Shown here: positions 5,696-13,423 of the stretch, piece by piece
Position numbering within the stretch: the stretch's first letter is position 1
How the letters are laid out: each line of letters opens with the position of its first letter
Assembly: GCA_963829525.1 (NCBI GenBank)
Contig: CAWHIJ010000003.1
Span: 704,001-768,000, forward strand
DNA from: an uncultured Actinomycetota bacterium
GTDB taxonomy: Bacteria; Actinomycetota; Actinomycetes; JAHEKZ01
Length of the DNA stretch: 64,000 bases
Direction of reading: 5' to 3'
Position numbers and translations under genes: made by a program
The notes under the pieces: generated by a model
Databases searched by the model: none
What the model was told of the DNA's origin: nothing
The model's input: the letters and a program-made list of their open reading frames with translations, nothing else

Positions 5696-6142
5696 ATGGC
5701 GATCAATGTCGAACTTGTCGGTAAGCACTATCCGCCGCAGACCTACGAGGTTGGACGCGAGAAGATCCGGGAGTTTGCCTCGGCGGTCGGCGATACCAAC
5801 CCCGCCTATCACGACGTCGATGTCGCAAAGGCGCTCGGCCATGGTGATCTGGTCGCGCCACCTACCTTCGCAGTCGTTGTGACGCGCGGGCCGCAGATTG
5901 CGGTCATCGACGACCCCGAGCTTGGCCTCGACTTCTCCCGGGTCGTGCACGGTGACCAGAAATTCTGGTTCACTCGCCCCATCGTTGCGGGTGAAACACT
6001 GCACACCACTGCATCGGTCCACTCTGCTCGCACGATGGCTGGCAACGACGTCTTGACGATTCGGAGCGATGTGGCAGACCAAGCTGGAGCCCCAGTGGTC
6101 TCAGTCTTCGCCACCCTCGTCGCTCGCGCATTGGAGGGGTGA
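5696..6142 (+). CDS. MaoC-like dehydratase N-terminal domain protein (HadA-like)
   Basis: YEVGREKIREFA, APPTF, VHGDQKF; conserved position after rpmG. Confidence 0.88.
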   Translation: MAINVELVGKHYPPQTYEVGREKIREFASAVGDTNPAYHDVDVAKALGHGDLVAPPTFAVVVTRGPQIAVIDDPELGLDFSRVVHGDQKFWFTRPIVAGETLHTTASVHSARTMAGNDVLTIRSDVADQAGAPVVSVFATLVARALEG

Positions 6143-6145
6143 CCG

Positions 6146-6574
6146 GTGGCAGCAGCTGTTCACGCTGACGACGTTGAAGTCGGTAGCGAGCTTCCACCGC
6201 AGTCCTTCTCGCTGCGGCGCGTTGACCTCGTCAAGTACGCCGGTGCATCGGGCGACTTCAACGTCATCCATTGGAACGAGCGAGTCGCTACCGAGGTCGG
6301 TCTGCCAAACGTCATTGCACACGGAATGCTCACGATGGCCGAGGCGGTGCGAGTGGTCACTGACTGGTGTGGTGATCCCGGAGCGGTCGTTGAGTACAGC
6401 ACCAAGTTCACCAAGCCGGTACCTGTTCCGGACACCGATTCCGGCGCCACCATTGTTGTCGGTGGCAAGGTGATCGAAGTTCTGGACGCCGGGCGAGTCA
6501 AGGTTGAGCTCACCGCCACCTGCGACGGCGTGAAGGTGCTCGGAATGGCGCGCGCTGTTGTGCAGCTCGCCTGA
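6146..6574 (+). CDS. MaoC family dehydratase (HadB-like)
   Basis: YAGASGDFNVIHW and IAHGMLTM hydratase-2 motifs. Confidence 0.9.
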   Translation: MAAAVHADDVEVGSELPPQSFSLRRVDLVKYAGASGDFNVIHWNERVATEVGLPNVIAHGMLTMAEAVRVVTDWCGDPGAVVEYSTKFTKPVPVPDTDSGATIVVGGKVIEVLDAGRVKVELTATCDGVKVLGMARAVVQLA

Positions 6575-7605
6575 TGCTCGAACGCACCGACGTCTCACTC
6601 GGCTCACTGACCACCCTCCGGATCGGTGGTAAGGCGGCACGCCTCTTCGAGGCGTCGACGACCGACGAGTTGGTGGGCGTCGTGCGTGGCGAAGGTCGGC
6701 ACGGTTGCCTCGTCCTCGCTGGAGGGTCGAACCTGGTGGTGTCCGACGAGGGGATCGATGTCCCTGTGGTCGCGGTGCGCACCACCGGTGTTGAAGTCCG
6801 GCGCGCTCCCGACAACGTGCTTATCGACGTGAAGGCTGGAGAGTTATGGGACGACCTCGTCGCACGTTGCGTCGGTGAGGGGTGGTCAGGGATTGAGGCG
6901 CTCTCGGGGATTCCCGGCTCAGTGGGTGCGACGCCGATCCAGAATGTGGGTGCCTACGGCCAAGAGGTTTCTGACGTCGTGGCCGGCGTCGACGTCTTCG
7001 ACCGGCTCACCGATCGAATCCACTCCCTGACAGCTACCGACTGTGCGTTCGGCTACCGCACGAGCGTCTTCAAGAAGGTTCCGGACAGATTTGTTGTGCT
7101 GTCGGTGCGGCTTCGGCTCCGGGCATCGAGTCAAAGCGCCCCTGTTCGATATACCGAGCTGTCCCGACGCCTGGATGTCGAGGTCGGTGAGTCCGCCCCG
7201 CTTGCCGAGGTGCGGGCCGCCGTGCTCGAACTTCGTCGCGCGAAGGGAATGGTGCTCGACGATGCGGACCACGACACCTGGTCGGCCGGCTCGTTCTTCA
7301 CTAACCCGGTGATTGCCCCGGGAGATGTTCCGGCCGACGCTCCGCAGTGGCTGCAGGCGGACGGGCGAGTCAAGACATCCGCCGCGTGGATGATCGATCA
7401 CGCGGGGTTCCCCAAGGGGTACGGCGCCAATGTTGGCACCGGCGCGGCGACTCTCTCGACCAAGCACACTCTGGCCGTCACCAATCGTGGCGGGGCGACG
7501 ACCGAAGACGTCTTGATCCTCGCTCGGACGGTACGTGAAGGCGTTCACGACCGATTCGGGTTGACTCTGCATGCCGAGCCAACCCTGGTCGGCGTCCACC
7601 TCTGA
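6574..7605 (+). CDS. murB: UDP-N-acetylmuramate dehydrogenase
   Basis: TTLRIGG, GGSNLV, GIPGSVGATPIQNVGAYG, FGYRTSVFK, SAGSFFTNP. Confidence 0.95.
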   Translation: MLERTDVSLGSLTTLRIGGKAARLFEASTTDELVGVVRGEGRHGCLVLAGGSNLVVSDEGIDVPVVAVRTTGVEVRRAPDNVLIDVKAGELWDDLVARCVGEGWSGIEALSGIPGSVGATPIQNVGAYGQEVSDVVAGVDVFDRLTDRIHSLTATDCAFGYRTSVFKKVPDRFVVLSVRLRLRASSQSAPVRYTELSRRLDVEVGESAPLAEVRAAVLELRRAKGMVLDDADHDTWSAGSFFTNPVIAPGDVPADAPQWLQADGRVKTSAAWMIDHAGFPKGYGANVGTGAATLSTKHTLAVTNRGGATTEDVLILARTVREGVHDRFGLTLHAEPTLVGVHL

Positions 7606-7633: not shown

Positions 7634-8683
7634 TCACTGACGGGGGGTCGAGAGCCAGGAGTCGATACCTTGCAGGATCTGCCGTCGGTGCGACTCGGGG
7701 GCTAGAGATGCGTTCACCGAAGACCGCGCAAGATCAGCCAGGCCGTGGTCGTCGAACGCGTGCGCGTCGCGGGCGGCCTCGTACTGCGCGGTCAGCCGCG
7801 ACCCGAAGAGCAGGGGGTCGTCGGCGCCCAGAGCCACTTCGACGCCAGCTTCCACCAATGTACGGACCGGAACGTCGGCGAGCGTGTCGTAGACCCCGAG
7901 CCCCACGTTCGAAGCCGGGCATATCTCAAGCGCAACTCCATCATCTGCCAGGCGCTTGACGAGGTCGGCGTCCTCGACACTTCGGACGCCGTGACCCACA
8001 CGGGTCGCCTTGAGAACTTCGAGGCAGCCGCGGACGCTTTCGGCTCCAAGAAGCTCACCGCCGTGCGGGACGCTAGCCAGACCGGCGTTTCTGGCGATGC
8101 GAAATGCCTCAGCAAAGTCGTCGACCCTGCCGCGACGCTCGTCGTTGGCGAGACCGAACCCCACAACCCCCTCATCGGCATAGCGCACGGCAAGCCGTGC
8201 GAGCGTGCGGGCGTCCAGTGGATGGCGGGTGCGGTTGGCGCCGACGATCACTCCGATCGCCAGACCGGTCGATCCCGATGCTGCGCGCACCGCGGCCAGC
8301 ATCAGTTCGAAGGTAGCCGTGAGGCCGTCAAATCGGGCGGCGTAGCCGGAGGGATCGACCTGGATCTCCAGCCACTGGGATCCATCGGCAACCTCGTCCT
8401 CGGCCACCTCACGGACGAGTCGGAAGATGTCGTCCGGGTCGCGCAGCACCGACCGGGCCGTGTCGTAGAGCCGCTGGAACCGGAACCAACCGCGTTCGTC
8501 AGTGGCCCGCAGCTCCGGGGGGTCGTCCGACATCAGGGCCTCGGGCAGGTGCACCTGGTGGCGCTCAGCCAGCTCGAGCAACGTGGTGTGCCGCATCGCT
8601 CCGGTGAAGTGGAGGTGCAGGTGGGCCTTGGGGAGGGCTCGCGCGCTTCGGGAGTGTCTGCTGTTCTCGTCCGCACCTGCCAC
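7634..8683 (-). CDS. add: Adenosine deaminase family protein
   Basis: LPKAHLHLH, HGGE, RVGHGVR, CPASN, GADDP. Confidence 0.9.
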   Translation of the reverse strand: MAGADENSRHSRSARALPKAHLHLHFTGAMRHTTLLELAERHQVHLPEALMSDDPPELRATDERGWFRFQRLYDTARSVLRDPDDIFRLVREVAEDEVADGSQWLEIQVDPSGYAARFDGLTATFELMLAAVRAASGSTGLAIGVIVGANRTRHPLDARTLARLAVRYADEGVVGFGLANDERRGRVDDFAEAFRIARNAGLASVPHGGELLGAESVRGCLEVLKATRVGHGVRSVEDADLVKRLADDGVALEICPASNVGLGVYDTLADVPVRTLVEAGVEVALGADDPLLFGSRLTAQYEAARDAHAFDDHGLADLARSSVNASLAPESHRRQILQGIDSWLSTPRQ

Positions 8684-8714
8684 GTGTCCAGGGTATGCAC
8701 CGCGACCGCCTCTA

Positions 8715-8751
8715 GGGCCTTTGGTCCCGGGAGTGCCGGGACTATATACCC
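8715..8751. promoter_or_regulatory. Two tandem DosR/DevR-like boxes
   Basis: GGGCCTTTGGTCCC (8715-8728) and GGGACTATATACCC (8738-8751), each 12/14 to the GGGACTWWAGTCCC core, 23 bp apart. Confidence 0.6.
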
Positions 8752-8761
8752 TGGGGGGTAT
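8746..8761. promoter_or_regulatory. CsoR/RcnR-family (CstR-like) operator
   Basis: ATACCC-TGGG-GGGTAT inverted repeat with G/C tracts, over the expected -35 of a promoter whose -10 is TACCGT (8775-8780). Confidence 0.7.
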
Positions 8762-8849
8762 CGGACCAGAGTCTTACCGTGGGGTGTGGAAGTCCCCCAC
8801 GGATTCTCAGGGTCCTGGTGGAGAACCCACGAAGACTCGGGAGGGCACG

Positions 8850-10097
8850 ATGAAGCGCCTGCTCGTACTCGGCGGCGGCACCGCCGGAACCATGGTCGTC
8901 AACAAACTCCGCCCCCGGCTTTCCAGGGATGAGTGGCAGATCACCGTTGTCGACCAGCGTGACGTCCACTACTACCAGCCCGGCTATCTCTTCATCCCCT
9001 TCGGCGCCTACACGCCGGACGAGGTGGTCAAACCCACCAAGCGCTTCATCCCGGAGGGCGTCGACCTTCTCCACGGTGAGATCGACCGGGTCGACGCTGA
9101 GGCAGGCCATGTACTGCTCGTGGACGGAACGGTCCTCGAGTACGACCAGCTTGTCATCGCTACCGGTACGACGCCGCGACCAGCCGAGACCCCAGGCATG
9201 GATGAGGGCGAGTGGCGCAAGAGCATCCACGAGTTCTACACCCACGAAGGAGCTACCGCCCTGGGCGAGAAGTTCAAGACGTGGGAGGGCGGACGCCTCG
9301 TGGTGCACATCGTGGACATGCCCATCAAATGCCCAGTCGCTCCGCTCGAGTTCACCTTCCTGGCAGACTCGTTCTTCCGCGAGAACGGCATCCGAGACCA
9401 GGTCGAGATCGTCTACGTGACCCCGCTTCCCGGCGCTTTCACCAAGCCCATCTCGTCCGAGCACCTCGGTGGCATGCTCGCGGAGCGCAAGGTTGAGGTC
9501 GAGTCCGACTTCATGGTCGAGAGCATCGACCCCGAGGCCAAGAAGCTCATCTCGTACGACGAGCGCGAGGTGCCGTTCGACCTGCTCGTCACGATCCCAC
9601 TCAACATGGGCGCCGACTACGTCGCGCGGTCCGGTCTCGGAGACGACCTCAACTACGTCAAGGTGGACAAGCACACCTTCCAGTCGACGCAGTTCGACAA
9701 CGTCTTCGCCATCGGGGACGCCTCGAACATCCCGGCGTCCAAGGCTGGTTCGGTCGCCCACTTCTCGGTCGACGTCTTCACCCACAACTTCTTGCGTCAC
9801 GTCGACGGCCTGCCGATGGACGAGAAGTTCGACGGGCACGCCAACTGCTTCATCGAGTCCGGTGGTGGCAAGGGACTACTCATCGACTTCAACTACGACA
9901 CCGAGCCACTCCCCGGCAAGTACCCGCTGCCTGGGATCGGCCCCTTCAGCCTGCTGAAAGAGACTGAGCTCAACCACTGGGGCAAGTTGATGTTCCGCTG
10001 GATCTACTGGAATGTCCTGCTCCCTGGCAAAGAGCTGCCGCTGCCAGCGCTGATGTCGATGGCCGGCAAGGAAGTTCCCGACGAGGTGGCATCATGA
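8850..10097 (+). CDS. sqr: Sulfide:quinone oxidoreductase-like flavoprotein (type III-like)
   Basis: LGGGTAG FAD motif, HYYQPG, catalytic-type Cys motifs KCPVAPLE and ANCFIESG, IGDA, NHWGKLMFRWIYW; RBS GGAGGG before ATG 8850. Confidence 0.85.
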   Translation: MKRLLVLGGGTAGTMVVNKLRPRLSRDEWQITVVDQRDVHYYQPGYLFIPFGAYTPDEVVKPTKRFIPEGVDLLHGEIDRVDAEAGHVLLVDGTVLEYDQLVIATGTTPRPAETPGMDEGEWRKSIHEFYTHEGATALGEKFKTWEGGRLVVHIVDMPIKCPVAPLEFTFLADSFFRENGIRDQVEIVYVTPLPGAFTKPISSEHLGGMLAERKVEVESDFMVESIDPEAKKLISYDEREVPFDLLVTIPLNMGADYVARSGLGDDLNYVKVDKHTFQSTQFDNVFAIGDASNIPASKAGSVAHFSVDVFTHNFLRHVDGLPMDEKFDGHANCFIESGGGKGLLIDFNYDTEPLPGKYPLPGIGPFSLLKETELNHWGKLMFRWIYWNVLLPGKELPLPALMSMAGKEVPDEVAS

Positions 10098-10798
10098 CCG
10101 CTCTTGCCACTGAGCGCTCCGTCGACGAGCGACTCGACCTCCTCACCGAACAGGTGGCGCTGATCGCCGAAGAGATGCGCCAGCAACGCCTGCAGAGAGA
10201 GCGTTGGGCAGATCTCGTCTCCGACTCCGCCCCGGTCGTCAGTGGTGCCTTCGACATGGTGAGTCGCGAGCTCGAGTCACTCAGCGACGACGTCACCGTC
10301 GACGACGCCGTGCAGCTGGCGCGCACTGTGGCGCGAGCTGTCCCAACCATGGAAGCGTTGCTGCGTCAGCTGGAGTCGCTCAGTTCTCTCGGTGAAGAGA
10401 TCGTCCCCCTCGCAAGCCCAGCAATGGCCACCCTGACGGCCACGCTTCAAGAGTTCGATGCCAAGGGCTATTTCACTTTTGCCAAGGGCGGGGCAGGCAT
10501 TGTCGACAAGGTCGTGACGTCGTTCACCGAAGACGACATCGACGCGCTGGGTGACAACGTCGTCCTGATCCTGAACACGGTCAAGGAGATGACGCAGCCC
10601 GAAGTCATGACATTGCTGCAGCGGACCGCGCTGACAGCCCAGGACGTTGACGAGGAGTTTGCTGAGGCACCCTCCACGTTCGCTCTGCTCAAGCAGATGC
10701 GAGACCCACAAACCCGCCGGGGCCTTGGTCGTGTGATGACCATGCTCCGCACCATCGGAGCCGAACAGTCGGCGCCGAAGTCCGAAACAGAGAGGTAA
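10094..10798 (+). CDS. DUF1641 domain protein
   Basis: C-terminal PSTFALLKQMRDPQTRRGLGRVMTMLRTIG resembles the DUF1641 signature; ATGA-coupled to sqr. Confidence 0.8.
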   Translation: MTALATERSVDERLDLLTEQVALIAEEMRQQRLQRERWADLVSDSAPVVSGAFDMVSRELESLSDDVTVDDAVQLARTVARAVPTMEALLRQLESLSSLGEEIVPLASPAMATLTATLQEFDAKGYFTFAKGGAGIVDKVVTSFTEDDIDALGDNVVLILNTVKEMTQPEVMTLLQRTALTAQDVDEEFAEAPSTFALLKQMRDPQTRRGLGRVMTMLRTIGAEQSAPKSETER

Positions 10799-10802
10799 GA
10801 CC

Positions 10803-11117
10803 ATGCCAGTCACCACGATCAACGGCCGCGAGATCCACGTCGACGACGAAGGCTTCCTCACCGAGTTCGACGAGTGGGACGAAGACCTCGCGAAGGTCCT
10901 CGCCGCCAATATCAACGTCGATCTCACCGATGAGCATTGGACGGCCATCAAGTTCGCCCGTGAGGACTACAAGTCTCAGGGCGAGACCCCGACGATTCGC
11001 CGGATGGCCTCGGTGGGCGGCGTCGACACCAAGAAGATGTTCCAGCTCTTCCCGAAGAAGCCAGCCAAGAAGATGTCCTACATCGCTGGTGTCCCCAAGC
11101 CCCACGGCTGCGTGTGA
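10803..11117 (+). CDS. TusE/DsrC/DsvC family sulfur relay protein (single C-terminal Cys)
   Basis: VDDEGFL, LTDEHW, LFPKKPAK, IAGVPKPHGCV. Confidence 0.9.
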   Translation: MPVTTINGREIHVDDEGFLTEFDEWDEDLAKVLAANINVDLTDEHWTAIKFAREDYKSQGETPTIRRMASVGGVDTKKMFQLFPKKPAKKMSYIAGVPKPHGCV

Positions 11118-11146
11118 GCGCTGTACCCAGCGAAGGAGAGTCAGTC

Positions 11147-11677
11147 ATGACCACCGAAACCCAAGCACCGCTCGTCCCCAACTTCGATGACGACGACACC
11201 GATCGCAAGATCGCCTTCATCTGCAGCAAGGGCAACCTCGACATGGCCTACCCGGCCCTGGTTCTTGCCAACGCTGCCCTTGGTGAGGGCATCGAGACGC
11301 ACCTGTTCTTCACCTTCTGGGGCTTCGACATGATCACCAAGTCTCGGATGCACGACCTGAAGTTCAGCCCGGTCGGCAACACGGCGATGCACATGCCCGT
11401 CGGGGACATTCGTATCCCTCAGGCCCTGGCACCCCTCCCCGGCATGCAGCCGATGGCAACCAAGATGATCAAGGACCAGATCGCGGCCCTCGGTGTTCCA
11501 GAGGTACCGGAGTTCCTCGACCAGATCGTTGCCTCAGGTGGCCATCTGTGGGCCTGCCGGATGTCGGCCGACATGAACAAGCTTGTTGAAGAAGATCTGT
11601 ACGAGGGAGTCGAGGCCATCATCAACGCCTCCGACTTCATCGAGATGACTGACGGTGCGCAGCTGCTCTTCATCTAG
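11147..11677 (+). CDS. DsrE/DsrF/DrsH-like (DsrE2-type) sulfur carrier
   Basis: SKGNLDMAYP, LFFTFWG, WACRMS; RBS GAAGGAG before ATG 11147. Confidence 0.88.
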   Translation: MTTETQAPLVPNFDDDDTDRKIAFICSKGNLDMAYPALVLANAALGEGIETHLFFTFWGFDMITKSRMHDLKFSPVGNTAMHMPVGDIRIPQALAPLPGMQPMATKMIKDQIAALGVPEVPEFLDQIVASGGHLWACRMSADMNKLVEEDLYEGVEAIINASDFIEMTDGAQLLFI

Positions 11678-11726
11678 CGCGCCGTGCCTGCCGTTTCCGG
11701 CCCTCGGGTCGAGGGCAGCAGGTCCA

Positions 11727-11933
11727 GGGACGCCGTTGTGGGGGCTTTGACTGGCACCCCGAGCAACGTGCGGCGGCCCCGGTCGGCTCCGTGGGGGAGC
11801 CTCCGACCGGGGCCGCATTCTGCTGTCGTAGCCCCGGCAGACTTAGCGAGGCCCACCACGCTGGTGGGTGCGTGTGGAAGACCAAACGGTCGTCGGGGGA
11901 GCTATGGGGTCCGCCAAACTCGGAGCCGACCGC
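11727..11933 (-). ncRNA. Candidate 6C-like RNA with multiple C-rich-loop hairpins
   Basis: Three hairpins with C5 loops on the minus strand; G-U pairs in two stems form only on the minus strand. Confidence 0.45.
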
Positions 11934-11955
11934 CCTGTCGCCGAGAGGCGCCGAC

Positions 11956-13185
11956 CTACTGGGCGTCGGCGATGAGCTTGCCGAAGCGGGTGACGCCTTC
12001 GACGATGTCGTCGTCGCCGAGTGCGTACGACAACCGGAGGTAGCCCGGCGTGCCAAATGCCTCACCGGGAACGACAGCCACCTCGGCGACGTCGAGAGCC
12101 ACATCAGCAAGCGTGAGTGATGAGTCGATCACCGTGCCGTTGATGCTCTTGCCGAGAACGCCCTTCACCGATGGGTACGCATAGAAGGCACCCTCGGGCT
12201 CGGGACAGTTGACGCCCGGGATGTCGTTGAGCATCGAGACGATGGTCTTCCGGCGTCGATCGAACGCGACGCGCATCTCGGCGGCCGCGTCCAACGGGCC
12301 GGAGACGGCTGCGAGGGCGGCCATCTGGGCGACGTTGCTGACGTTGCCCGTGGAGTGCGACTGCAGATTGGTGGCGCCCTTGATGATGTCCTTGGGGCCG
12401 ATGACCCAGCCCACGCGCCATCCGGTCATGGCGAAGGTCTTGGCCACACCGTTGACGATCACGCAACGGTCGACGATGTCGGGCACGAGGTTCGGCATCG
12501 ACGAAAAAGTGACATCGCCGTAGACGAGGTGCTCGTAGATCTCGTCGGTCATCACCCAGATGCCATGCTCGACGGCCCACCGCCCGATGGCGGTGATCTG
12601 CTGGGCAGAGTAGACAGCGCCGGTGGGGTTCGACGGAGAGCTGAAGATCAGCATCTTGGTGCGCGGGGTACGAGCTGCCTCAAGCTGCTCGACCGTGGCC
12701 CGGTAGCCGGTGGTCTCGTCGGTGACGACCGGAACGGGCACGCCGCCGAAGATGGAGACGGCAGCTGGGTAGGTCACCCAGTAGGGCGCCTGGATGATGA
12801 CCTCGTCGCCGGGGTCGATCAGTGATGCGATGGCGCTGAAGATGGCGTGTTTGCCGCCGTTGGTCACCAGCACCTGGGACGCCTCGACCTCGAGGCCGGA
12901 GTCGCGCAGCGTCTTGGCGGCGATGGCCTCGCGCAGTGCTGGAAGGCCAGCAGCGGGGGTGTACCGGTGCCAACGCGGGTCGTGGGCAGCCGCTGCCGCC
13001 GCCTCGACGATGTAGTCGGGAGTGGGGAAGTCCGGCTCTCCGGCACCGAAGCCGATCACCGGCCGGCCAGCTGCCTTGAGCGCCTTTGCCTTGGAGTCGA
13101 CGGCCAGCGTGGCTGACTCTTCGATGTCGGCCACCCTGGCCGAAAGACGCGGGGCGGGCGAGGAGGGCGAGGAGGGAACAGTCAT
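11956..13185 (-). CDS. aspC: PLP-dependent class I aminotransferase (aspartate aminotransferase)
   Basis: [42 protein letters not shown]. Confidence 0.9.
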
Positions 13186-13423
13186 GCAGCCAGTGTCCCA
13201 CCGGGCGGCTCGAGCCAGGCAGGGCGTTCCACACACCATCCTCTGTCGCCCTCCTTGGCGCCCTCCTCTGGCGTCAGTGCGGCCACACCCGCGGTTCGAC
13301 GGCGCCCGCCTCGACCCCGTAGACTCACCGCCGGTGGCATTTGCCATGGTCTTGCCATGCCCGGACTTCTGTGAAGACCCTCACAGCCCGGGTGTGGCCC
13401 GCCCGGACGCCTATGCCTCCTGG

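Follow-up and report, generated by a model that had tools for sequence, protein, structure and literature searches.

Type III sulfide:quinone reductases (SQRs) have been called the least understood class of SQRs, and in sulfide-adapted Methylacidiphilum fumariolicum SolV an operon of type III SQR, TusA and DsrE2 genes is reported to be upregulated about 1.7-fold (PMC10205796). In Streptomyces coelicolor the repressor ScCsoR, which carries Cys37 and Cys66, binds the sequence ATACCn6GGTAT in electrophoretic mobility shift assays and is released from it by polysulfide (PMC7533328). Proteins with the domain DUF1641, namely Ncp, HucM and ForE, have been presented as a family whose members serve as enzyme scaffolds, provide membrane attachment and carry quinone, and the Ndh-Ncp complex contains a hydrophobic tube that holds lipids and menaquinone (PMC13524794). 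Here we describe a set of four genes, sqr, a DUF1641 gene, a TusE-type gene and a DsrE2-like gene, found in a 64,000-nt stretch of DNA from an uncultured actinobacterium (this whole stretch is called the window below; it is C3:704001-768000, where C3 is contig CAWHIJ010000003.1, of a 2.96-Mb genome with 65% G+C and 97% completeness). We read the set as a sulfane-sulfur-responsive operon that would detoxify and oxidise sulfide and in which the DUF1641 protein would serve SQR, and to this reading we give somewhat better than an even chance. Its observed basis is the gene content, conserved residues, synteny, the sites with their distribution and an SQR tail that covaries with DUF1641. New here are the regulon of the CstR type, the box resembling that of DevR and the charge switch in the tail; the trio of SQR with two carriers and the CstR-type circuit are of kinds already known. 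The initial annotation of the locus, which had proposed an oxygen-independent module, knew of no physiological characterisation of similar gene sets, and the SolV operon amends this statement.

The invariant core of the locus is SQR-TusE-DsrE with DUF1641 as an optional insert, because in 68 of 68 loci having at least 2000 nt of downstream sequence the SQR gene is succeeded by co-oriented TusE and DsrE genes, and 23 of the same 68 (28 of 80 loci overall) have a DUF1641 gene inserted between the first two. The three-gene core is also carried by species of Nocardioides, Terrabacter and Nakamurella. The loci counted belong to the best 80 of 592 relatives, which were collected from 596 candidate stretches in a wide scan with one genome per species. 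They come mostly from Actinomycetes and Acidimicrobiia, plus one from Trueperaceae and one from a record labelled Acidobacteriota. A gene-neighbourhood survey of this sort had been suggested with the initial annotation, and its outcome is a fixed trio with a variable fourth gene. A closer survey covered 41 related genomes, 20 of which had an SQR above the model cut-off; both carrier genes directly followed it in 18 of these 20 loci, the other two stopping at contig ends, and 14 of the 20 had DUF1641, 5 lacked it and 1 could not be scored. In the 80 loci of the wide scan, genes for CstR-like proteins (7 loci), DUF302 (6), thioredoxin (5), rhodanese (10) and dioxygenase-rhodanese (6) lay no farther than 5 kb from the module.

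The flavoprotein, initially annotated as SQR-like with two catalytic-type cysteine motifs, is identified by several comparisons as an SQR in which the two redox cysteines are kept. It scored 640.4 bits against the NCBIfam model NF049943, “type III sulfide quinone reductase, selenoprotein subtype” (cut-off 525, model positions 1-406), and its gene is the only one of this type found by a search of the genome. The N-terminal FAD-binding fold was recognised as Pyr_redox_2 (E 7e-20). Human SQOR was the best solved relative (E 1e-36): IKCPVAP of the window protein aligns with VKCAGAP and ANCFIESG with TSCPLVTG of the human enzyme, so that both redox cysteines are in place, and Cys161 and Cys333 proved to be invariant across an SQR alignment of 35 rows. 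The motifs CPVAP, CFIE and WACRMS (the last one in the DsrE2-like protein) noticed initially are all present in the translations. In the SQR-like genes located beside DUF1641 in three genomes (G227, G266 and G104) a TGA codon aligns with catalytic Cys333 (GHANC versus GH[IV]I*P), and these genes are candidate selenocysteine forms, in keeping with the name of NF049943. The in-frame TGA in the SQR of a relative from the same genus (G001) was rejected as selenocysteine, the frame changing there between two overlapping matches, and this gene is either frameshifted or affected by an assembly error.

The clearest promoter element of the locus is the CstR/ScCsoR-type operator ATACCCTGGGGGGTAT, situated about 100 nt upstream of sqr within the 166-nt space that precedes this gene (Table 1); its sequence conforms to the above site of ScCsoR. 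The operator is kept in the aligned upstream regions of relatives from the same genus, and the TATATA hexamer that overlaps its left arm is conserved in 8 of 11 aligned upstream regions of relatives. Exact ATACCC-N4-GGGTAT sites occur only five times in the genome, while about 0.1 is expected by hand calculation from base composition. One of them is that of sqr; a second lies upstream of genes for a rhodanese and a fusion of metallo-beta-lactamase (MBL) with rhodanese, a third separates a DUF302 gene from a thioredoxin gene, a fourth precedes the gene of an exported rhodanese and the fifth stands, at C3:411499, about 90 nt before the gene for a 732-aa STAND-ATPase/TPR/LuxR-type regulator. A shorter site, TACCCCTGGGGGTA (TACCC-N4-GGGTA), precedes the only CsoR-family gene of the genome, which is thus flanked by two sites; its product, the single PF02583 protein, has Cys44 and Cys73 separated by 29 residues. 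At the position of the His ligand of CsoR it has Gly. Among 77 SQR loci (best 80 of 592 relatives) similar sites were found within 260 nt upstream of SQR in 19, and elsewhere in these loci there were 30 sites in 760,987 nt, that is 0.010 per 260 nt. Control of the CstR type is not general, because the remaining 58 of 77 loci show no such site by the pattern used.

This distribution bears directly on the argument by which an oxygen-independent pathway had been proposed. The window, as stated initially, contains no rhodanese (0 of the genome's 9 rhodanese matches lie in it), no persulfide dioxygenase (0 of 17 MBL-fold matches) and no dsrAB, a match to dsrA being absent from the whole genome. The conclusion drawn from the missing dioxygenase is not supported, however: behind the CsoR-family gene, at C3:2.768-2.772 Mb, there is a row of genes for a rhodanese, a 509-aa MBL-rhodanese, another rhodanese and TauE, and the dioxygenase-rhodanese carries the same ATACCC-N4-GGGTAT site as sqr. 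The 509-aa protein has 3tp9 and 3r2u as its best matches in the PDB and also matches ETHE1 (4chl) and BpPRF. A CstB-like, O2-dependent dioxygenase-rhodanese encoded elsewhere in the genome thus probably shares its regulon with sqr, and ordinary sulfide detoxification is therefore the best reading of the operon. With its five exact sites, the compact CstR-type regulon offers an outline of how an uncultured lineage of actinobacteria may respond to sulfide stress.

A second palindrome of the sqr promoter, GGGCCTTTGGTCCC, resembles a DevR/DosR box and leaves some basis for the hypoxic control assumed in the original proposal, in which the module either stores sulfane sulfur on carriers or runs SQR in reverse, from menaquinol to polysulfide, as an anaerobic electron sink. 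The SQR step itself needs no O2. In an alignment of 11 upstream regions from the genus and family the exact sequence GGGAC[TC]TTGGTCCC is conserved at the -35 region of 8 out of 10 relatives, and exact GGGAC-N4-GTCCC sites were found upstream of SQR in 5 of 77 loci versus 4 sites in 760,987 nt elsewhere. A second half-match, GGGACTATATACCC, follows 23 nt after GGGCCTTTGGTCCC and overlaps the CstR-type site; each of the two matches 12 of 14 positions of the DevR/DosR core. DevR of M. tuberculosis is described as contacting GGGACT in each half of the palindrome, with at least two tandem boxes in every promoter (PMC3177182), and the tandem layout of GGGCCTTTGGTCCC and GGGACTATATACCC resembles such promoters. 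The genome also encodes a GAF-HisKA_3 kinase beside a NarL-type REC-GerE regulator and ABC-transporter genes (C3:209.4-211.9 kb), and the box GGGACGTTAGTCCC stands 56 nt before an operon of a tandem universal stress protein (USP) gene and a gene for a 337-aa nitroreductase (C3:1073227). Taken together, the USP/nitroreductase box and the kinase-regulator pair resemble a small dormancy system of the DevRS/OsdRK kind.

Against all this stands the operator that the dioxygenase-rhodanese operon has in common with sqr, which points to an O2-dependent end of the pathway. The palindrome of the window is mismatched in one half, and a genome scan with the 20-nt DosR consensus returned 0 sites within 3 mismatches and 1 within 4. 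Only five exact GGGAC-N4-GTCCC sites are present in the genome, two of which adjoin genes of a TetR-family and an HTH-type regulator; since the perfect 14-nt core site (C3:970815) is flanked by genes of a cupin and a TetR protein, a core match is by itself no sign of a hypoxia regulon. As for reverse operation of SQR, the midpoint potential of menaquinone is about -74 mV and that of sulfur/sulfide about -270 mV. Electron flow from menaquinol to polysulfide would be uphill by approximately 200 mV. This part of the initial annotation is unsupported by the present data, and a reductase partner able to handle polysulfide was not found in the operon. We consider the oxygen-independent module very improbable. 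What stood of the hypoxia-type promoter suggested for it is a DevR/DosR-box-like palindrome conserved in relatives, its copy in the window being degenerate and the CstR-type operator clearer. Control of the sqr promoter by a DevR-like regulator is possible, with the chances leaning against it; even if it does operate, a promoter responsive to sulfide would merely gain low oxygen as a further signal, and the module would not become independent of oxygen.

Two further observations concern the regulatory region. The STAND/LuxR regulator behind the fifth CstR-type site has a DNA-binding domain of the GerE type, by which DevR recognises palindromes of the GGGAC type, and it is pure speculation to link it to the second palindrome of the sqr promoter. 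The presumed sqr leader (8777-8802, 8810-8822) keeps GGAAGTCCCCCACGGAT and GGTCCTGGTGGA nearly unchanged across the genus. Its inverted repeat was tried as an RNA hairpin and rejected: RNAalifold gave 0 compensatory changes in 16 pairs, with no covariation support.

Both small proteins encoded downstream belong to families of cysteine-dependent sulfur carriers. The TusE-type protein matched PF04358 with E 2e-33 (115.6 bits) and TIGR03342 with 89.1 bits at a cut-off of 53.5, and its end, PKPHGCV, aligns with PKPTGCV of the DsrC structures 1sau and 1yx3. Ten residues before the C-terminal cysteine, where DsrC has its second cysteine, CysB (Cys in both structures), there is Ser, and because of this replacement the protein is of the single-Cys TusE type. 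DsrC proper, the substrate of DsrAB, was rejected on account of this Ser and of the genome search for dsrA, which gave no match in the 97% complete sequence. The DsrE2-like protein matched PF13686 (DrsE_2) with E 3e-30 (105.5 bits, cut-off 25); as a DsrE2 equivalog (NF047629) it failed, with 112 bits at a cut-off of 210. Its nearest solved relative is 2qs7, which is DsrE2B of S. solfataricus (PMC4175335, PMC11094781), and the cysteine of WACRMS aligns with those of FACSTT in 2qs7 and YACQLS in 3pnx. As the two cysteine proteins accompany SQR in 68 of 68 loci, it is reasonable to assume, as was done initially, that sulfane sulfur is held on protein carriers or passed to them. The constancy of the trio of SQR, TusE-type and DsrE2-type proteins suggests that a protein, and not a small thiol, accepts sulfane sulfur from these enzymes. 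A second DrsE_2 gene (134 aa) is located at C3:2755-2759 kb, divergent from the gene of a rhodanese-MBL protein (376 aa) and with a SulP/STAS transporter gene and the gene of a 4Fe-4S dicluster protein as neighbours. The region, where the CstR-type pattern was searched for and gave no site, may be a second sulfur-handling cluster.

The same carriers could also be thought to serve biosynthesis, with DsrE and TusE conveying the sulfane sulfur produced by SQR towards thiolated cofactors or tRNA in the manner of TusBCD-TusE of E. coli. The clear family match, the single-Cys form characteristic of TusE and the fact that the operon contains the only DsrC-family gene detected in the genome speak for such a role. 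However, the equivalog model for TusE of tRNA 2-thiouridine synthesis (NF008562) gave only 75.9 bits at a cut-off of 191, and this assignment was rejected. Moreover, the carriers are linked to SQR in every locus, several loci add CstR, dioxygenase, rhodanese or DUF302 genes, and the genes of the window lie behind a persulfide-sensor site, which fits the handling of stress. We give a biosynthetic function very little credence.

Another member of the set is the DUF1641 gene, the only one of its family found by a search of the genome. Its product matched PF07849 over residues 191-222 with E 8e-7 (29.2 bits, cut-off 21). A search of the PDB with the single sequence gave nothing meaningful, and a profile built from 41 relatives reached ForE1/YjgD (8rqz) with E 0.007 over residues 117-232. 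Type III SQRs bind the membrane through C-terminal amphipathic helices. To see whether SQRs followed by a DUF1641 gene differ from the others, 90 SQRs were compared, 37 with and 53 without DUF1641. They came from 75 of the 80 loci of the wide scan (five with an SQR match below 400 residues or less than 700 nt of downstream sequence were dropped) and from 15 of the 20 loci of close relatives (near-identical or truncated same-genus loci L012, L014, L015, L017 and L018 were left out). The expectation that SQRs linked to DUF1641 lose the C-terminal tail was rejected: the tail is kept and only its charge and a few residues differ. Residue 395 is E or D in 37 of 37 SQRs with DUF1641 and in 0 of 53 without it, and residue 373 is E or Q in 37/37 of the former and E, D or Q in 1/53 of the latter. 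Seven of the 11 most discriminating positions fall within residues 362-411. The net charge from residue 362 to the end averages -0.62 (from -3 to +1) in the presence of DUF1641 and +4.40 (from -1 to +8) in its absence, and residues 1-361 are charged alike in both classes. An SQR tree constructed from alignment columns 1-362 alone requires at least 10 changes of the DUF1641 state, and six independent pairs on well-supported branches agree at residue 395 in all six cases (sign test, p 0.031, uncorrected).

A further sample, only partly independent (some of its genomes may be of the same species as loci of the wide scan), contained DUF1641 in 16 of 301 Actinomycetota genomes, the present one included. 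In the other 15 genomes 17 out of 20 DUF1641 places directly follow a gene of the SQR family and three do not. Five of the 17 are full modules and twelve have an SQR-like gene with 28-37% identity, near which no carriers were found within 1.5 kb on each side. The SQRs of the five full modules all have E at residue 373; at residue 395 three have E, one has D and one has Q. The SQR-like clade with 34-37% identity has E aligned to position 373 in 7/7 proteins and keeps both cysteines. The covariation of the tail fits a DUF1641 protein that acts as a quinone and membrane adaptor of SQR, as Ncp, HucM and ForE do for their enzymes. In a partial survey of literature mentioning DUF1641 its pairing with SQR was not found described. 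That the tail switches its charge along with this optional partner suggests an extension of the recently described quinone-conduit principle to sulfide oxidation.

Based on these data one can assume the following course of events. A CstR-like repressor would sit on ATACCCTGGGGGGTAT over the presumed -10 element and leave it when persulfidated, as is suggested by the site and by precedent. The type III SQR would then oxidise H2S at Cys161 and Cys333 and send two electrons via FAD to menaquinone, which is predicted from its family and residues. In the lineage of this SQR the amphipathic tail appears to have lost its positive charge, and the DUF1641 protein may take over contact with the membrane and the supply of quinone; the precedents are Ncp for NDH-2, HucM for the hydrogenase Huc and ForE for formate dehydrogenase, and linkage and covariation form the basis of this step. 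The cysteines of the DsrE2-like and TusE-like proteins would accept the sulfane sulfur of SQR with no release of polysulfide, to judge by the invariant synteny. Finally, the carriers might feed the rhodanese/dioxygenase-rhodanese/TauE operon of the putative regulon, where O2 would be used to produce sulfite or thiosulfate for export. Regulation by a DevR-like protein, acting through the second palindrome, may come in addition.

A number of points weigh against this scheme. Enzymatic activities, binding events and co-transcription at the locus are all deduced from sequence. A scan of positions 8500-12100 for consensus sigma-70 promoters and terminators returned 0 of each, because of which both the operon and its -10 element are inferred from spacing only. 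As already said, 58 of 77 SQR loci lack the CstR-type site, and the LuxR/STAND regulator behind one of the five exact sites has no evident link to sulfur. DsrE2B of M. cuprina, which belongs to the nearest studied kind of DsrE protein, was reported to be inert to six sulfur compounds in vitro (PMC4175335). The choice of residues 373 and 395 followed an inspection of 415 positions, the above p value of the sign test is uncorrected, and one DUF1641-linked SQR found later (L136) has Q at position 395. The AlphaFold2 model of the DUF1641 monomer is all-helical and poor (pLDDT 53, pTM 0.22). The likeness of the protein to solved conduits is weak (E 0.007 for ForE and 0.17-0.35 for YjlC/Ncp), and SQR may have retained a membrane attachment of its own, because the hydrophobic core of its tail is kept with or without DUF1641. 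Prediction of the complex of SQR with DUF1641 gave no answer (score 0.00 in two runs made with no controls) and speaks neither for nor against binding.

The last of these points lead to a variant of the scheme in which SQR and the carriers function as described above, the tail of SQR binds the membrane and the DUF1641 protein is a chaperone, a regulator or a scaffold of the carriers. The hydrophobic tail motif NHWGKLMFRWIYWNVLLPG is present in SQRs of both classes, with and without DUF1641, 45 of 68 loci dispense with this protein and its resemblance to conduits is faint. Yet the gene always lies between sqr and tusE and overlaps the stop codon of sqr, the charge of the tail and residues 373 and 395 switch together with DUF1641 in at least 6 independent pairs, and even in the distant clade of SQR-like proteins preceding DUF1641 the residue aligned to 373 is E throughout. 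We regard this variant as unlikely, though deserving more weight than the other alternatives, and prefer the adaptor function.

If the adaptor function is combined with the remaining predictions, the operon would represent a fourth class of DUF1641 respiratory complexes besides Huc, ForCE and Ndh-Ncp, in which an SQR detached from the membrane is docked on a protein tube supplying menaquinone, hands sulfur directly to carriers and is governed by both CstR-type and DevR-like inputs. The whole combination is doubtful and is offered tentatively. Should it be true, the tail switch would consist in replacement of Arg/Pro by Glu at positions 373 and 395 with a change of charge from about +4 to about 0. 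Actinomycetota would have gained or lost this transition from direct membrane binding to docking on the tube more than once, and sulfane sulfur would be handed straight to the DsrE2-like and TusE-like proteins, hence no free polysulfide would be released.

The arrangement of the locus (Table 1) agrees with the initial annotation, which had placed four tightly spaced genes between add and aspC: the overlap and the gaps are as given there. In the list of open reading frames (ORFs) of the window the four plus-strand ORFs span positions 8850-11677. The sqr and DUF1641 genes share a 4-nt ATGA overlap, and gaps of 4 nt and 29 nt separate the DUF1641 gene from tusE and tusE from dsrE, respectively; the DsrE2-like ORF has an alternative GTG start at 11114. 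Further upstream, at 5696-6574 of the window, two MaoC/hotdog-like ORFs (148 and 142 aa) are followed by a murB-like ORF (6574-7605), these translations being judged by eye.

Table 1. Features of the sqr locus and its surroundings, in window positions.
Feature	Position	Strand	Basis and remarks
Adenosine deaminase gene (flank)	7634-8683	-	family match
DevR/DosR-box-like palindrome GGGCCTTTGGTCCC	8715-8728	.	degenerate copy (GGGCC half) of GGGAC[TC]TTGGTCCC
TATATA, possible -10 element	8743-8748	+	sequence inspection; overlaps left operator arm; tentative
CstR/ScCsoR-type operator ATACCCTGGGGGGTAT (ATACCC-N4-GGGTAT, 16 nt)	8746-8761	.	pattern match; candidate site
Inverted repeat CCGTGGGG-N10-CCCCACGG, presumed sqr leader	8777-8802	+	sequence conserved in relatives
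sqr	8850-10097	+	415 aa from MKRLLVLGGG start; type III sulfide:quinone reductase; Cys161 (CPVAP), Cys333 (CFIE)
DUF1641 gene	10094-10798	+	234 aa, cysteine-free, predicted all-helical; proposed quinone conduit and membrane adaptor of SQR
TusE-type gene	10803-11117	+	104 aa; DsrC/TusE family; single C-terminal Cys103 in PKPHGCV
DsrE2-like gene	11147-11677	+	176 aa; DrsE_2 family; Cys in WACRMS
Class I aminotransferase gene (flank)	11956-13347	-	family match

Of the described systems, the operon MFUM_v2_0219-0221 of strain SolV is similar in that a type III SQR gene is followed by two small carrier genes, and DsrE2 is among their products. The first carrier is TusA-like there and belongs to the TusE/DsrC family here (the two operons are compared by description only), and the description consulted for that operon names neither a DUF1641 gene nor a CstR-type site (PMC10205796). 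The circuits of ScCsoR in S. coelicolor and of the cst genes under CstR in S. aureus are similar in the repressor, with its two cysteines 29 residues apart, in the 16-nt ATACC-N6-GGTAT operator and in the targets, which are dioxygenase, rhodanese, tauE and the repressor's own gene; the authors of the work on S. coelicolor contrasted its circuit with H2S-oxidising ones having SQR and persulfide dioxygenase (PMC7533328). Unlike in these circuits, the predicted site of the present genome also fronts the SQR operon, the DUF302/thioredoxin genes, an exported rhodanese and the LuxR/STAND regulator.

In Ndh-Ncp (YjlD-YjlC) of Bacillus subtilis, Huc-HucM and ForCE a protein with C-terminal DUF1641 is likewise encoded beside a quinone-reducing enzyme, and Ndh, as described, is a flavoprotein of the SQR superfamily that lacks the usual membrane-binding residues (PMC13524794). 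The partner here is SQR itself, which appears in that study as an outgroup only (PMC13524794). With 234 aa the DUF1641 protein of the window exceeds the conduit chains in the PDB (140-186 aa) and resembles them mainly in its C-terminal half, the complex with SQR being putative. Location of a DsrE-family gene directly downstream of an SQR gene is a linkage published in 2014. The DsrE2-like protein considered here is assigned neither to DsrE2B nor to DsrE4; its best solved relative is a DsrE2B (2qs7), and its score with the DsrE2 model is below the cut-off. The relays DsrEFH-DsrC and TusBCD-TusE similarly combine a DsrE-type protein having an active-site cysteine with a DsrC/TusE-type protein having a penultimate one (PMC11094781). 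They differ in using three subunits where the present operon has one DsrE-like gene, and dsrAB and CysB of DsrC are absent here. Their sulfur donor, according to the same source, is TusA or rhodanese (PMC11094781), whereas the donor proposed for the operon of the window is SQR.

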